Shown: positions 41,623 to 50,874, counted from the first letter of the stretch. The stretch is 64,000 nt of DNA from a virus (IMGVR_UViG_3300033121_000719:32001-96000); one strand, 5' to 3'. The notes: a model not told the origin generated them from the sequence alone. Numbers and translations: made by a program.

Positions 41623-41750
41623 ATATTTTCATTACAGCAAATATCTGTAATAATGAGATTAAAATTCCAATAATAATTATAGCGTAAGACATAAATTTGA
41701 TTTGTTTATATCTCTTGAACATCATACCTCCTATAAAAATGAATTTTATC

Positions 41751-42296
41751 TTAAATAATTTTGTGACATAACCCAAGTTTTAAAGCATCTTGCGCTGGAA
41801 TAAACCAATCCGCTTTTCTTTCTTTATAAGAATTTAATTTTTCTTGCATGATGTTTGAGTTTTCTGTAATTATGTTGTCATATAATACTTGAAGTCTTTC
41901 CATTTCAGATACTTCTTGCTTGATTCCTTCTAGTTTATCTCCAATAAAATTTGAAACTTCATGATATAAGAGTGTAGCGTTTTTGCCCATATACCTATTC
42001 TTTGATGCCATAAATATCCATAACCCCATGCTCATAGCTCTTCCAAAACAATATGTATGAATTGGGGTGGAATTGTTAATAATCAAATCAACTAAAGATA
42101 ATCCGTCATAAACACTTCCTCCACCAGAATTTATATATAGACAAATTGGCTCCATTTTAAAGTTTCTAAATGTTTCAGCCTTACATTTATCATCATACGT
42201 AATGTCAAAAATCTTGTTAACAACACCGTCTATCGTAGAAGCATTGATATATCCAGACAAAAATATATTTTTGTTTTTTGAAATATCTTCCCACAT
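41751..42296 (-). CDS. ClpP-like serine protease (S14)
   Basis: LYINSGGGSVYDG, AMSMG, LLYHE, DWFIPAQDALKLGL. Confidence 0.85.
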   Translation of the reverse strand: MWEDISKNKNIFLSGYINASTIDGVVNKIFDITYDDKCKAETFRNFKMEPICLYINSGGGSVYDGLSLVDLIINNSTPIHTYCFGRAMSMGLWIFMASKNRYMGKNATLLYHEVSNFIGDKLEGIKQEVSEMERLQVLYDNIITENSNIMQEKLNSYKERKADWFIPAQDALKLGLCHKII

Positions 42297-42415
42297 ATCT
42301 TATTCTCCTTTATAAATTCGTACTTTTATTGGTTTTTTATACACCGTATATGGGGGTGTAATATAACTTAACCCCCATATATACAGGTGGTTAAACACAT
42401 AAAATATTTGTTTTA

Positions 42416-42733
42416 TTATAAAACTGTATTTTCATTCCCAATTCTATCACAATCATCACATAAAGTCAATAACCAACTACCATTACGCAATCTTCCTTCT
42501 TTACCACATCTTTCACAGGTTATTGCGCTTTTATTTTCTGCTTCCTGAATTAGTTTATCAAACTCAGGAGTAGACCAATTGACATATGCTCTCAAAGTAC
42601 CAAATTTCTCTTTTATTTGAACAAATTTTATATCATCAGGTTTGTTATCGTATAGAAAATTAATAATACCAGACCAACCAATACCAACACAATTTAAAGC
42701 ATCTTCTCTATCAATATCTCCATATCCACTCAT
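42416..42733 (-). CDS. Conserved phage hypothetical protein
   Basis: GW..I, QIKEKFGTLRAY, CERCG, TLCDDC. Confidence 0.65.
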   Translation of the reverse strand: MSGYGDIDREDALNCVGIGWSGIINFLYDNKPDDIKFVQIKEKFGTLRAYVNWSTPEFDKLIQEAENKSAITCERCGKEGRLRNGSWLLTLCDDCDRIGNENTVL

Positions 42734-42903
42734 AGTTCAGTCTCCTGTAATTCTTGATACACACAATTTATTGTTTCATTTGTGCTTGCATCAACAGCAA
42801 CAAGATTTGATTCTGGTTCTAATTCTTCAAAAGGAACCAATGAAAAATACCATTCAGATTCGTCATCGTCTTTGTGTAAAAATAGTTTCATAAAACGCTC
42901 TTT

Positions 42904-43149
42904 TCATTTATTATCGTCATAAATATAGCACATATCATTTGTATTAGGACAAAAATAAAAACCATGATAAGGTAGATTCATATTTGTATCAAGAACTTTT
43001 AGATACTCGTTTACCTCATGAGATTCTCCGCAAGACTGACATTTGTCAATTTTTATCCACTTTAAAGCATGCGTACTTTCACTTAGTTTAATTCCCGTTT
43101 TAGCGTCTCTCAATGTTATTATAGCTGAATTGATTAAGAATTTTTTCAT
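42904..43149 (-). CDS. Hypothetical protein
   Basis: ORF; stop codon lies inside a junction site. Confidence 0.5.
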   Translation of the reverse strand: MKKFLINSAIITLRDAKTGIKLSESTHALKWIKIDKCQSCGESHEVNEYLKVLDTNMNLPYHGFYFCPNTNDMCYIYDDNK

Positions 43150-43334
43150 TTTAAATACACTTGTTCAACGACATAATTATAGTCAGGACTTGTATCTCTG
43201 TCAACAAAAATAGACGCTACTTCTGATACTTTTTCATCTTGAGAAATATGTTTTACGTCACTCTCTCCATAACCAGCTATAATTAGGTCTACAATCTGTA
43301 CATACAGCTCATTTAGTTTCATAAAACTCTCCTT

Positions 43335-43526
43335 TTATTTTCTATAATCTTTCACAATTTTATATTCACCTTCTCGCAAATAACACCACCTATCAAAACC
43401 ATCGTAATAATAAATAGTATTGTCTTTATCTATTTCTTTTACTAAAACAATCTCTCCAACACCATTCCCAAAACAAATAGTTGTTATTTCTGCTCTTAGA
43501 ATTGTTTTGCCTCTTTTTTCTCTCAT
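43335..43526 (-). CDS. Hypothetical protein
   Basis: Start and stop both lie within junction sites. Confidence 0.55.
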   Translation of the reverse strand: MREKRGKTILRAEITTICFGNGVGEIVLVKEIDKDNTIYYYDGFDRWCYLREGEYKIVKDYRK

Positions 43527-43538
43527 AAAACTTTTCTT

Positions 43539-48488: not shown

Positions 48489-48524
48489 TGATTGTTTATT
48501 CCTTTCTAAGAAACCTAATAAAAA

Positions 48525-48737
48525 TCACATTTCATTTCCAAAAATACTACCAAAACAATAATCACAACGTTGTAACTCATATTCTGGAATTTCACCATTT
48601 CTATAATCTTCAGCTTTGCTTGCAGGAATAGGAACATACACGTTATCTTTGTTTCTATAATATCCAAAACCAAAACATTCTGGACAATTTTCATAATGAT
48701 GCACTTCGCATTTTGTACATAATTTTAATTTCAACAT
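48525..48737 (-). CDS. Cys-rich hypothetical protein
   Basis: CxxC x3. Confidence 0.5.
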   Translation of the reverse strand: MLKLKLCTKCEVHHYENCPECFGFGYYRNKDNVYVPIPASKAEDYRNGEIPEYELQRCDYCFGSIFGNEM

Positions 48738-48762
48738 AATTCGTCCTTATGAAATTACCGTT

Positions 48763-48963
48763 TTATTCCATTAATTTTGCATCATCAATTAGTTTACATA
48801 AAATTTCTTTAGCAAATTCTTTACCCATTGTTTCAGTATATAATCTAATTTCTGGTTCACCGTATTCGTCACATCCAGAGACAATATCTAATTGCCCAAA
48901 GTAACCTTTGTCATCACTCCAAGATATACTTAATCCGTCTGAAATTGAAATTTGATAACTCAT
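48763..48963 (-). CDS. Hypothetical protein
   Basis: ORF; stop codon within a junction site. Confidence 0.5.
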   Translation of the reverse strand: MSYQISISDGLSISWSDDKGYFGQLDIVSGCDEYGEPEIRLYTETMGKEFAKEILCKLIDDAKLME

Positions 48964-48966
48964 AAT

Positions 48967-49809
48967 TTATTGTATCCCTTTTATATTTTCAGAAATATAT
49001 TTGTAAATTTTCCACATTGGTAAAACGGGAGTACTTGTTTGTAATACTTTCGATATGTCCCAATTTTTAACACAATTATATATTTCTTCTTTTTTGTTTG
49101 CATTATTGATTACAAAAATAATTTCTTTTTTATATAACTCATTTTTATCTAAAATTTGTCCACATTTAGCACCCCATGCACAAATTTTAAAATCATATTG
49201 TTTGTTTTTATAAATTTCAATAGAAGGAGAAGAAGGTGTTGATAAATTATGATCATCATATAAAACAAAATCTTTAAAACTATATCTCTGTTTTTTATTT
49301 AACCCTTTTTCTGGTTTTTTGTAAATATTAAAACAACAATGAATATCTCTATCTGTATAAATATTTTTACCCAAATCTTCGCTATAAATTAAATCAAATT
49401 CATAAAAAATATAAGTATTATTTAATTGACTAATTGGTAAAATAAAAGCAATATAATCTCCCAATTGATAACATTTTTTCATAAATTTTAATGCTTCATT
49501 TAACCTTGCACCAAAAGGAGGATTCCCAATAAATAATCTACCTTCTTTATATGGAAGATTTAACTCTAAGAAATCTTGCTTTATAATGGAATCATCCTCT
49601 GGTTCTAAATCGTAAGCAATACATCTTTTTATTTTTTTGCTAAACGCTCCATTGCCAGCAGAAGGTTCAATGACTTCCGTTATTTTTTCATTCTTTAAAA
49701 CTTCTCTTGCCTTATCAATACAATACTGTGCGGTTTTGTCTGATGTATAATATTTATCAAGATGTAATTTGTTTGAATTTTGTGTCAAATCTCGCTTAAA
49801 TTGTTGCAA
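48967..49809 (-). CDS. N6-adenine DNA methyltransferase (gamma class)
   Basis: DKYYT, IEPSAGNGAF, QDFL, GNPPFG, IAFILP; TTG start after AAGGAGGT. Confidence 0.85.
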   Translation of the reverse strand: MQQFKRDLTQNSNKLHLDKYYTSDKTAQYCIDKAREVLKNEKITEVIEPSAGNGAFSKKIKRCIAYDLEPEDDSIIKQDFLELNLPYKEGRLFIGNPPFGARLNEALKFMKKCYQLGDYIAFILPISQLNNTYIFYEFDLIYSEDLGKNIYTDRDIHCCFNIYKKPEKGLNKKQRYSFKDFVLYDDHNLSTPSSPSIEIYKNKQYDFKICAWGAKCGQILDKNELYKKEIIFVINNANKKEEIYNCVKNWDISKVLQTSTPVLPMWKIYKYISENIKGIQ

Positions 49810-49851
49810 AATACCTCCTTTTTGATTTAAAAACCACATAAAAATGGGATT

Positions 49852-50679
49852 TTATTGGGTTAATTCTATCCTTTTTCTAATTATATCACAATATTCACTA
49901 CTCATTTCGCTTCCAATAAATTTTCTATTGTTTAATTTTGCCATTTTTAAAGTTGTACCACTTCCACAGAATGGATCATAAACAATATCATTTTCATTAG
50001 ACCAAGATAAGATATGATCTTCAGCAAGTTTCTCTGGAAATGTAGCAGGATGTTCAAATGAAAATTTATCTTTAGATGAAACCATATATCCAGAATTATA
50101 AAACCAAACATTAGATTTTGTTTTGTCTAATTTCTGTCCTGAATTTTCAATTCGCTTCAACATTCTATCATCTGAATCTGCTCTGGCAGTTGTCCCATCT
50201 TTGTTTCTGAAAGACTTTGACGCAAACTTTATACTACCTTTTTTAATTTTTTCTATTTCTTTTTCAGATTTAGATTCTTTTAAGGGATTGAATGTATTAA
50301 CATTTCCTTTACTAAATACAAACATAAATTCAAATTGTTGATTATATCTTACATTTGCAGGGAAAGGACAATTATTTTTAGCGTAGATCATTGTATCCCA
50401 AACATTAAATCCAATGGAATTAAAAAATAAACATTGTTTATATGGTACTAATTCTTCCGTCCCATCTTTTGTTTTATCGCCAACCACCCAAACTACTACA
50501 CCACCTTGTTTTGTTACACGAAATAATTCTTTGGCAATAGATTCAAAATCCCATGTATATTTTTTATAATCTCTAAAATCAGAATATGGAGGAGAAGTTA
50601 CAGTTAAGTCGATAAAATTATCTTCCATTTTACGCATTGTTTCTAAACAATCCTCGTTATAAATTGTATTTATTTCCAA
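49852..50679 (-). CDS. N4-cytosine/N6-adenine DNA methyltransferase (beta class)
   Basis: VTSPPY, HPATFPE, YDPFCGSGTT. Confidence 0.9.
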   Translation of the reverse strand: MEINTIYNEDCLETMRKMEDNFIDLTVTSPPYSDFRDYKKYTWDFESIAKELFRVTKQGGVVVWVVGDKTKDGTEELVPYKQCLFFNSIGFNVWDTMIYAKNNCPFPANVRYNQQFEFMFVFSKGNVNTFNPLKESKSEKEIEKIKKGSIKFASKSFRNKDGTTARADSDDRMLKRIENSGQKLDKTKSNVWFYNSGYMVSSKDKFSFEHPATFPEKLAEDHILSWSNENDIVYDPFCGSGTTLKMAKLNNRKFIGSEMSSEYCDIIRKRIELTQ

Positions 50680-50874
50680 TATTTCCTCCTAAATTTTAAA
50701 ACCCAATAAAACTTCACTTTTATCTATTTTTATCTTCATATTCTTCTGGATTATTTCTGTAAAACCACGCTACGATGTTTAATCCAGTTTCAGAATATGG
50801 AAGTTTGAACAATATATCTCTTACGATACTCCACACAAAAATAAAGATAAAATAATTATAGGCTCTTTTTATCA

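Follow-up and report, generated by a model that had tools for sequence, protein, structure and literature searches.

Background

The dif modules of Acinetobacter plasmids are flanked by pdif sites, which belong to the XerC/XerD system (PMC6449649, PMC13141974). PeSL (promoter-early stem-loop) cassettes of T4-type phages comprise a sigma-70 promoter and a terminator hairpin, and recombine by homology across their full length (PMC2839356, PMC4122927). The stoperators of Cluster A mycobacteriophages are asymmetric sites at which a monomeric immunity repressor binds and stops transcription elongation (PMC9283540, PMC6550527), and in phage SPbeta a 15-bp motif, SPBRE, is found at approximately 10 promoters and is bound by the recombinase-fold repressor MrpR (YopR) (PMC10516654).

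Here we analyze a 64,000-nucleotide stretch of the 132.8-kb genome of an SPbeta-like phage (the stretch is referred to below as the window; coordinates are those of the window unless the genome is named), in which a short symmetric site recurs at the junctions of small genes. Related phages often cease to be alike at these sites, and the sites therefore look like protein-bound joints for gene swapping. Our preferred reading, to which we give a probability of roughly 0.42 on the sequence comparisons that follow, is that the site would be a protein-bound junction element and a preferred joint for the exchange of gene modules between related phages.

The repeated site and its spacing

An earlier note on this DNA had listed 17 copies of T(A/G)AA(A/T)-N6-TTT(T/C)A, with a spacer of fixed length (6 bp) and variable sequence, together with two variants. 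The pattern is present at each of the 17 coordinates, with the flanks inspected on both strands, and both variants exist, although the one at 41734 has a spacer of 5 nt and the left arm of the one at 44720 is degenerate. All genes of the array lie on the minus strand, and the sites are as follows.

41734..41749, minus strand: variant in which the spacer is 5 nt long; TAGGAGGTATGATG follows immediately
42313..42328, minus strand: junction site; the ClpP-like gene 41751-42296 has its ATG 17 nt downstream
42400..42415, minus strand: junction site; the stop of 42416-42733 is 3 nt before the coding-strand left arm
42891..42906, minus strand: junction site whose TGA arm terminates 42904-43149 and whose opposite arm closes with the ATG of 42730-42891; the spacer is Shine-Dalgarno-like
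43322..43337, minus strand: junction site whose TAA arm terminates 43335-43526 and whose opposite arm leads into the ATG of 43146-43322; the spacer is GGAGAG (Shine-Dalgarno)
43526..43541, minus strand: junction site containing both the stop codon of 43539-43823 and the start codon (ATG) of 43335-43526
43835..43850, minus strand: junction site; stop of 43851-44030 at -3, ATG of 43539-43823 12 nt on
44042..44057, minus strand: junction site, giving the stop of 44055-44321, then TAGGAGAAAATATG of 43851-44030
44333..44348, minus strand: junction site, giving the stop of 44346-44708, then the same leader, TAGGAGAAAATATG, of 44055-44321
44720..44735, minus strand: degenerate site that reads TAGAT-N6-TTTCA on the coding strand; 44346-44708 begins (ATG) 12 nt further on, and a perfect match to a sigma-70-type promoter lies upstream of the site, at 44803-44776
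45538..45553, minus strand: junction site; 45218-45526 begins (ATG) 12 nt further on
45745..45760, minus strand: junction site with the stop of 45758-45973, spacer GAGGAT and the ATG of 45566-45745
45973..45988, minus strand: junction site that follows the PAPS-reductase-like stop codon by 10 nt; its arm closes with the ATG of 45758-45973
46924..46939, minus strand: junction site followed by the leader TTGGGTTTTTAAGGAGG; the PAPS-reductase-like gene 45996-46901 starts (TTG) 23 nt downstream of the site
47957..47972, minus strand: junction site with the stop of methyltransferase gene 47970-48488; a second methyltransferase gene, 47254-47943, has its ATG 14 nt downstream
48519..48534, minus strand: junction site that shares bases with the end of 48525-48737; the ATG of 47970-48488 is 31 nt downstream
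48750..48765, minus strand: junction site with the stop of 48763-48963, 13 nt before the ATG of 48525-48737
49839..49854, minus strand: junction site with the stop of methyltransferase gene 49852-50679, upstream of the TTG start at 49809
50707..50722, minus strand: junction site with the stop of 50720-50875, 28 nt before the TTG of 49852-50679

Extra matches to the pattern at 42419, 42841, 43548 and 48099 lie within ORFs or adjoin another site (the match at 43548-43563 is within an ORF end, 22 nt from the 43526 site). The 42313 site is the second of two sites within a 120-nt gene-free stretch, and the 49839 site is the sole copy with longer complementary flanks.

A spacing of six is sharply preferred. 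When the spacer was scanned from k = 0 to 15 over the region, the relaxed pattern gave 21 matches at k = 6 compared with 0-7 at other k, and the strict form TAAAA-Nk-TTTTA gave 12 at k = 6, with 1, 3, 2 and 1 at k = 10, 11, 13 and 14, respectively, and 0 at the remaining k. The window holds 52 strand-matches to the motif, compared with 18.2 +/- 5.2 in dinucleotide shuffles (0 of 100 shuffles reached 52). On a genome-wide basis, 18 of 153 co-oriented junction windows carry a site and 1.06 would be expected from the same windows shuffled, so that the comparison with shuffled sequence proposed in the earlier note comes out in favor of the motif. In its extended form the motif is A-TRAAA-N6-TTTYA-T, with conservation at positions -1 to 4 and 11 to 16 only (approximately 12 fixed bases); the recombinase-core geometry that had been recognized, with inverted arms around a fixed 6-bp center, is borne out. 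Each spacer within the array is different, and we found no cassette bounded by two sites with the same spacer.

Placement relative to genes

The sites form two clusters in the genome, one at 42.3-50.7 kb of the window and a second array at 115.7-121.7 kb of the genome, beyond the window. Their assignment to accessory-gene arrays is upheld: 17 of the 36 junctions in the small-gene arrays bear a site, compared with 1 of 117 in the rest of the genome (Fisher p ~1e-11). Within these junctions the fit to the neighboring genes is close. An arm had been said often to supply the stop codon, and at 14 of the 26 sites in the genome the coding-strand left arm T(A/G)A is indeed the true stop of the upstream ORF (10 of these 14 belong to the window array); at 4 further sites the left arm is 3 nt past that stop. 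On the other side, the right arm closes with the following ATG at 8 of the 26 sites; at 9 it precedes that ATG by 12-14 nt. For most copies the gap from site to ATG is too short for a promoter, and a scan of the coding strand of the array for terminator-like hairpins found none.

The tight phasing recurs in two genomes (stop offset 0 or -3; Shine-Dalgarno/ATG offset 0 or 12-15 nt), and in one class of sites the spacer itself is the Shine-Dalgarno sequence, as might be expected if stop codon, AU hairpin and ribosome-binding site coupled translation or directed mRNA processing. We consider such an RNA role very improbable: hairpins at the sites average only -1.5 kcal/mol, the half-sites are complementary and not identical (pointing to duplex DNA), for tandem sites, or those in gene-free spacers, there is no cistron to be coupled, and equally tight core-gene junctions are without the motif.

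Symmetry of the site and its likely reader

In a second genome, G006, all 59 of 59 sites have A at position -1, and 58 of 59 have T at position +16; spacer position 1 is never A and spacer position 6 never T. The two arms are equivalent and the site is two-fold symmetric. The commonest arm type in G006, TAAAA..TTTCA, gives an A.C mismatch if paired, and at arm position 2/15 of this genome pairing covariation is absent (25 A.C versus 19 Watson-Crick and 15 G.T), which is further evidence against an RNA role. Because the site is symmetric, is without pairing covariation and forms negligible RNA hairpins, we read it as a target in double-stranded DNA for a putative dimeric protein; its reader would most likely be such a protein, or two recombinase monomers.

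A dimeric protein of phage or host might instead act at every early-array junction as a repressor or roadblock that silences, insulates or times transcription. The mosaic boundaries described below would then be secondary, the conserved regulatory islands being the only shared sequence (compare the PeSL of T4-type phages). Two-fold symmetry is typical of operators, and strict conservation of all copies is expected of a regulatory site. Furthermore, sites occur only in blocks read from sigma-70-type promoters and are missing from the structural and replication blocks; one copy in the contigs L182 and L183 lies 13 nt past a perfect TTGACA-N17-TATAAT, an operator-like position, and tandem sites, which occur 19-25 nt apart, would fit cooperative binding. 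There are precedents both for sites scattered over a phage genome, in the stoperators (PMC9283540), and for a recombinase-fold repressor, in SPbeta (PMC10516654). We nevertheless regard a regulatory role as somewhat less probable than module exchange, given that a repressor normally wants promoter sites and not approximately 60 junctions, that stoperators, unlike these sites, are asymmetric and oriented, that an HTH_3 domain was found in 0 of 5 genomes of the clade, that the small ORFs of the array are without a Pfam domain, and that the published motif of the SPbeta master repressor is a different sequence.

Identity with the SPBRE/MrpR (YopR) operator was considered and rejected: the 15-mer shared at the SPbeta targets is AAAWAATATGTATAT, which is unrelated to TAAAA-N6-TTTTA. 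We recovered AAAWAATATGTATAT upstream of 9 of 10 published targets (yorE, aimR, yonT, yonP, yonX, yorZ, yosX, yopV and yopM), and a homologue of YopR or YopP was not found in this genome.

Distribution among SPbeta-like phages

The motif is a clade-wide element of SPbeta-like phages, with the spacing of six constant in four genomes. Among distant relatives, the strict form occurs 34 times at N6 in Bacillus phage SPbeta (0-4 at other spacings), G006 has 83 strand-matches at k = 6 (2-8 at other spacings) of which approximately 60 are at junctions, and G002 has 12 strict sites at k = 6 (0-4 elsewhere, save 6 at k = 13); G001 has no strict excess. The closest relative of the present phage has approximately 60 junction sites. 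The sites persist even though the genes between them are orphans: of ten array and flanking proteins that were looked up, eight were singleton clusters (the collection lacks two exact sequences), and a search for homologues of one array gene found none.

Homology boundaries between relatives

Boundaries of homology are enriched at the sites. In three independent contig pairs that are 98-99% identical, divergence is complete right past TTTTAT(G). The contigs L182 and L183 have 16-17 sites in 5.8 kb, and at each of the 8 points where their homology breaks, the outer edge of a site is 0-10 nt away; two indels span exactly one right arm to the next right arm. SPbeta and phi3T have in common a 3.2-kb block of 99.97% identity that is bounded by two sites (its first base is the A preceding one site, and its last falls within the right arm of another), and one break in this pair falls exactly at a left-arm/spacer boundary. 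Overall, 10 of 32 SPbeta/phi3T breakpoints are within 12 nt of a site and the remaining 22 are elsewhere; for breakpoints on SPbeta the figure within 12 nt is 7 of 32, compared with 6.2% of random intergenic positions (p = 0.003).

The prediction that breakpoints in relatives would map to the sites is thus partly realized: homology often begins or ends at a site, in near-identical relatives often at its edges or at an arm/spacer boundary, but not exclusively within the 6-bp spacer. Depending on the pair compared, the spacer goes with the gene upstream or with the gene downstream. Breaks at the 'outer edge' are in part an effect of alignment, because the arms are identical in all sites and alignments run through them. 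Breaks are also seen at start codons (G000 versus L111 and L114; L111 versus L172). Selection for intact genes alone drives surviving breakpoints into junctions, and a non-homologous gene can be carried along by double crossovers in the homologous genes on either side of it, with no event at the site.

One gene of the array has itself been found in other surroundings. Gene 48967-49809 (minus strand), a 'predicted RNA methylase' according to one source (PHROG 5172), is alone among the ten proteins looked up in having cluster mates at 90% identity or above; other phage contigs match it at 86-87% nucleotide identity exactly over the ORF, and in L111-L114 it has other neighbors. This accords with the mobile gene cassettes that had been proposed. 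Segregation of the spacer to either side, with the upstream or the downstream gene, is a poor fit to an integron-type cassette carrying its own 3' site.

Returning to the preferred reading, that of a joint for module exchange, the site is squeezed into the minimal gap between early or accessory genes, one arm serving as stop and the other abutting the ribosome-binding site or ATG. A crossover in an arm, or at the arm/spacer boundary, would leave one whole site at every recombinant junction, and the unique 6-bp center would pass to either side at the exchange. The breakpoints are compatible with crossover at either spacer edge and equally with microhomology in the arms. The sequence comparisons establish the motif, its symmetry and placement, its spread through the clade and its enrichment at homology boundaries; that a protein binds the site, and that the site has any causal part in recombination, we infer.

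Candidate recombinases

Two tyrosine recombinases are encoded in the window.

53116..53988, minus strand: Xer-type tyrosine recombinase (R, K, HxxR, H and Y motifs identified by eye)
236..1240, plus strand: second tyrosine recombinase, a homologue of SPbeta YomM, adjoining the tape measure gene (R, K, HxxR, H and Y motifs identified by eye)

The first has its own sigma-70-type promoter and looks catalytically complete; among solved structures it comes closest to XerC-like, XerD and XerA proteins (E 1e-26 to 1e-23), and its match to IntI4 is limited to residues 230-275 (E 1.5e-8). With the core-site geometry and its 6-bp center, the two L182/L183 indels from right arm to right arm and the occurrence of 48967-49809 in other contexts, this enzyme suggests an integron-like array, in which cassettes of one to three genes would leave as circles and be inserted again at the sites. 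That the recombinase at 53116-53988 serves the sites, which the earlier note had raised as a possibility, does not agree with the distribution of the two: SPbeta has no homologue of it (tblastn E<=1e-5) yet carries the motif, and G001 has a relative (27% identity) yet no strict motif excess. The spacers, moreover, all differ, and ordinary tyrosine recombinases do not join sites with unlike spacers; the spacer does not always move with the upstream ORF; and the arms are without attC-like pairing. Finally, one ORF deletion in L182/L183 left both flanking sites, 17 nt apart, and is therefore not the product of a site-by-site event. We judge an integron-like array improbable.

The YomM-like enzyme is the tyrosine recombinase common to this phage and SPbeta, in which yomM is annotated. 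G002 and G006 have two Pfam integrase matches each, and each has an integrase gene adjoining the tape measure gene. For exchange at the proposed joint, candidate catalysts would be a phage tyrosine recombinase (the YomM-like protein shared with SPbeta) or short-homology recombination.

Comparison with known systems

Like stoperators, the sites are numerous copies of one short sequence over a phage genome; unlike stoperators, they are symmetric and confined to small-gene arrays. As with SPBRE, a repeated intergenic element occurs in the same phage group, and the reader of SPBRE has a tyrosine-recombinase fold, but the palindrome does not match the 15-bp promoter motif.

Co-oriented, mostly promoterless small genes, each followed by a palindromic element that often contains the stop codon and has conserved ends around a variable center, are features shared with integron attC arrays. 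An attC site is, however, 57-141 bp long and acts as a folded single strand with paired R and L boxes, whereas the phage site has 16-18 bp and no pairing covariation; attC has one fixed crossover point and moves with the upstream ORF, whereas the center of the phage site goes to either side; and the integron integrase is of IntI type, whereas the recombinase at 53116-53988 is Xer-like. An integron proper (IntI + attC + attI) was accordingly rejected on integrase, attC fold and fixed crossover. Like PeSL, the sites are short, conserved and intergenic, occur only in hyperplastic regions rich in small orphan early genes, and mark where insertions, deletions and replacements between close relatives start or end; unlike PeSL, the phage site is without promoter or stable hairpin.

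In pdif sites the two 11-bp arms differ (XerC and XerD) and have a defined orientation that alternates along the plasmid, whereas the phage sites have equivalent arms with 6-7 bp conserved in each, overlap stop and start signals, and belong to a phage, not a plasmid, in another host. In both systems many short sites with inverted arms and a variable 6-bp center bound accessory modules in different backbones, and an Xer-type recombinase is encoded in the present genome. The same module in different backbones, as in dif modules, is seen here twice, in gene 48967-49809 and in the 3.2-kb block of SPbeta and phi3T.

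A palindromic site at gene junctions

All 17 copies that the earlier note had listed in the small-gene array match the pattern T(A/G)AA(A/T)-N6-TTT(T/C)A, in which two inverted arms enclose a spacer of 6 bases. This pattern has 52 strand-matches in the window, compared with 18 ± 5 in shuffles, and the strict form TAAAA-Nk-TTTTA occurs in the region 12 times at k = 6, with 1, 3, 2 and 1 occurrences at k = 10, 11, 13 and 14 and none at other k. Genome-wide, a site is present in 18 of the 153 co-oriented junction windows, where shuffling the same windows predicts 1.06 (genes were called as simple ORFs of at least 45 amino acids for these genome-wide counts and of at least 38 in the window). 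Seventeen of the 18 site-bearing junctions lie in two small-gene arrays (window 42.3-50.7 kb and genome 115.7-121.7 kb), and the other 117 junctions, outside the arrays, contribute one (p ~1e-11). Neither of the two statistical outcomes that would have counted against the earlier note, an equal frequency in shuffled sequence or at core-gene junctions, is therefore seen. No two spacers in the array are alike.

Read on the coding strand, the sites have the consensus AA-T(A/G)AAA-N6-(A/T)TT(T/C)A-T. At 14 of 26 sites the left arm serves as the true stop codon of the upstream ORF, and at 4 more the stop lies 3 nt earlier; the final sense codon is obliged to end in AA, so that the motif extends into coding sequence. 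At 8 sites the right arm merges into the next ATG, the spacer there being the Shine-Dalgarno sequence; the distance from right arm to ATG is 12-14 nt at 9 sites and 17-31 nt at the remainder. Results were mixed as to whether, in long intergenic spacers, the site is tied to the stop or to the start.

Three sites (46924, 49839 and 50707) stand before larger cargo genes with TTG starts (one PAPS-reductase-like and two methyltransferase-like) that have a common leader 3' of the right arm, namely T(T/G)(G/T)GGTTTT, an A/T run and then AGGAGG; a leader of the same type, more diverged than its ORF, occurs in two of the compared contigs (L111 and L172). Between two neighboring sites, window 42329-42399 comprises 70 nt with no ORF and an imperfect inverted repeat (CACCTGTATATATGG ... 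CCATATACGGTG), and may represent a small RNA or what is left of a lost gene.

The likeness of the junctions is not explained by tandem gene duplication, which we rejected on finding the array genes to be without paralogues among themselves. A homologue search with one array gene found none. Eight of ten array and flanking proteins looked up among 15 billion proteins fall in singleton clusters, and two exact sequences are absent from the collection; of the ten, only the protein of gene 48967-49809 has close relatives elsewhere.

The phage and the spread of the site through its clade

The source phage is a distant SPbeta-like siphovirus. Its record, of which the window covers bases 32001-96000, is 132,783 bp long (G+C 32%) with direct terminal repeats, and contains homologues of SPbeta terminase and tail genes together with a homologue of the YonO-type single-subunit RNA polymerase (genome 4090-6804, outside the window; 28% identity over about 500 amino acids). 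A weak HU-like match lies near the latter (genome 8845-9021, also outside the window), and yonO and yonN are arranged likewise in SPbeta. No close relatives were found in the phage collection by megablast or blastn.

From about 24 kb to the end of the window the genes are on the minus strand, and the phage carries nucleotide-metabolism genes. Two ORFs (26958-27824 and 25320-26330, within window 24256-27824, minus strand) together encode the split large subunit of ribonucleotide reductase, and are adjoined by a fusion gene of a GIY-YIG homing endonuclease and a MazG-like domain (24256-25311, minus strand). The middle of the 1670-residue DNA polymerase ORF (28924-33936, minus strand) matches ribonucleotide-reductase-type and HNH endonuclease families, which suggests that the gene is interrupted by intein/HNH-like inserts, with one or two inteins.

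The motif is a clade-wide element of SPbeta-like phages. The closest relative, a syntenic 91-kb contig (G006) with 30-61% amino-acid identity, has 83 strand-matches at N6 where other spacings give 2-8; some 60 sites lie at its junctions, phased as in this phage (stop at offset 0 at 27 sites or -3 at 13; next start at offset 0 at 11 sites or 12-15 nt at 31). A more distant relative (G002) has 12 strict sites compared with 0-4 at other spacings, save 6 at k = 13, grouped where its own PAPS-reductase and methyltransferase genes lie. L182 and L183, two contigs from sediment, have 16-17 sites within 5.8 kb. SPbeta itself has 34 strict sites at N6 compared with 0-4 at other spacings, with 29 of 36 relaxed N6 matches in early clusters, and the portion of phi3T that was analysed has 26 sites. 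In every genome examined the structural and replication blocks are nearly free of sites. One relative anchored on ClpP (L095) is without the motif, and its N10 excess consists of ordinary terminators. We found no description of the palindrome in the SPbeta review, the MrpR paper (PMC10516654) or the prophage-recombination preprint.

Such strict conservation would be accounted for equally well by a regulatory site, acting as an operator or a roadblock, for which stoperators offer a precedent, as PeSL cassettes do for recombination as a side-effect. We rank this explanation second, as a possible one and less probable than the exchange of modules discussed below.

Homology breakpoints at the sites

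Homology between relatives often ends exactly at a site. The gene at 48967-49809 is matched in four contigs at 86-87% nucleotide identity over the ORF exactly (from codon 2 to the stop, the start codons differing), and in those contigs the stop of the homologue is the left arm of a site. Contig L111 diverges from L112-L114 directly after the TTTTATG of that site, and two near-identical pairs (L185/L186 and L113/L171) diverge at the same relative place. Between the two sediment contigs, eight of eight breakpoints fall 0-10 nt from the outer edge of a site. In this as in the other comparisons, breakpoints are the ends of BLAST alignments and are drawn outward by the arms common to all sites. In the sediment pair the same slot between common sites is filled by unrelated genes, two indels span exactly from one right arm to the next, and the deletion of one ORF leaves two sites 17 nt apart.

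A 3.2-kb block shared by SPbeta and phi3T at 99.97% identity starts at the A before one site and ends within the right arm of another, and one further break between these phages lies exactly between left arm and spacer. Seven of 32 breakpoints are within 12 nt of an SPbeta site, compared with 6.2% for random intergenic positions (p = 0.003), and 10 of 32 are that close to a site in either genome. These counts make the association of sites with breakpoints real but partial. A preprint on phi3T-SPbeta hybrids describes a single non-homologous recombination site 'following yosA'; SPbeta has a palindromic site between yorZ and yosA (at about 116415 in L252/L253), and its nearness may be coincidence.

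The spacer segregates with the upstream block in some comparisons and with the downstream block in others. The pattern of breakpoints does not fit a crossover confined to the 6-bp spacer; nor does it fit a cassette of integron type with its own 3' site, since the spacer goes to either side, and the integron-like excision proposed in the earlier note is in our estimate improbable. Crossovers placed within an arm or at one or other edge of the spacer do fit; breakpoints of this kind are expected from a tyrosine recombinase whose cuts are 6 bp apart, and also from microhomology in the arms. The explanation that we rank first, with a probability of roughly 0.4, is that the site is a protein-bound joint at gene junctions through which modules are exchanged.

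What reads the site

The sites of the closest relative are informative about the form in which the palindrome is recognized. There is little or no variation in the flanking A (-1) and T (+16), and the spacer has no A at its first position and no T at its last, which makes the pattern fully two-fold symmetric. The commonest combination of arms is TAAAA..TTTCA, an A.C mismatch (25 sites), with A-T at 14, G-C at 5 and G.T at 15, so pairing does not covary. Complementary half-sites that show no selection for pairing suggest a site in double-stranded DNA, recognized by a dimer or a pair of recombinase monomers, and not an RNA or a single strand that folds. The mean predicted energy of the RNA hairpins is -1.5 kcal/mol, compared with -0.8 in shuffles; with folds about as weak as in shuffles and mismatches common, we rejected an RNA or single-strand hairpin, and consider any role in RNA or translation very unlikely.

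Other readers were also considered. The variable spacer and the lack of space ahead of the ATG speak against a promoter used by a phage polymerase or sigma factor. No sigma factor (Sigma70_r2) or HTH_3 protein was found in five clade genomes; a search for a T7-type RNA polymerase gave no match, but neither did its own control, which makes that search uninformative. Intrinsic terminators, which in this genome take the form of a G+C-rich hairpin with a run of T after it, were rejected: scanning the array's coding strand turned up none. The master repressor of SPbeta, MrpR, has a tyrosine-recombinase fold and binds a repeated element, SPBRE, at about 10 promoters (PMC10516654). A 15-mer, AAAWAATATGTATAT, is common to 9 of 10 upstream regions of the published MrpR targets, and is unrelated to the palindrome, which excludes an SPBRE/MrpR operator. 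No YopR or YopP homologue is present in this phage. A regulator encoded within the array was rejected as well (19 small ORFs with no Pfam domain and no HTH_3 match); the sole hit is the weak HU-like one, which lies outside the window.

Candidate recombinases

Two tyrosine recombinase genes in the window were compared as possible agents.

53116-53988, Xer-type tyrosine recombinase, catalytically complete by appearance
236-1240, plus strand, YomM-like tyrosine recombinase in the tail module, directly before the tape measure gene; catalytic motifs look intact

The Xer-type enzyme had been suggested to serve the integron-like array. It does look catalytically complete; as the agent it is disfavored, together with the model that invoked it, since SPbeta has no homologue and since G001, which has a relative of the enzyme, lacks an excess of the strict motif. 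A search for a longer dif-like site beside its gene found nothing convincing. One extended -10 promoter (TTGACT, 16 nt, TGGTATAAT) is found, with the same bases around it, both at 54012-54039 before the gene of the Xer-type recombinase and upstream of 33936 before that of the DNA polymerase. A phage-encoded tRNA-Gln (anticodon TTG; 52694-52766, minus strand) separates the recombinase gene from a Thy1-like gene.

The product of 236-1240 shares 28% identity with SPbeta YomM. In G002, tblastn finds a match to it, and both G002 and G006 have integrase-family matches next to their tape measure genes. On these homologies and positions, which amount to thin evidence, the YomM-like enzyme is the better candidate. 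No published function was found for this recombinase of the tail module. A dedicated system of site-specific gene exchange in SPbeta-like phages can be imagined, in which a conserved YomM-like recombinase would act on the palindromes and the 6-bp center, unique to each junction, would be an address, only sites of the same address in co-infecting relatives recombining; we regard this specific form as unlikely. If it were true, accessory genes would be swapped in register and the genome would not be scrambled.

Significance

How phage accessory genes are replaced while gene order is preserved is an old question, to which the customary reply is that illegitimate recombination is random and selection acts afterwards. 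Throughout this group of phages, the junctions of the regions that change most are marked by a DNA site that is symmetric and strictly conserved. Many copies occur in SPbeta and phi3T, both genetically tractable in Bacillus subtilis, so that binding, recombination and regulation are directly testable. If regulatory, the site would be a new operator system spanning dozens of junctions; if it serves as a joint for recombination, it would amount to a phage equivalent of dif modules and could be used to engineer accessory regions.
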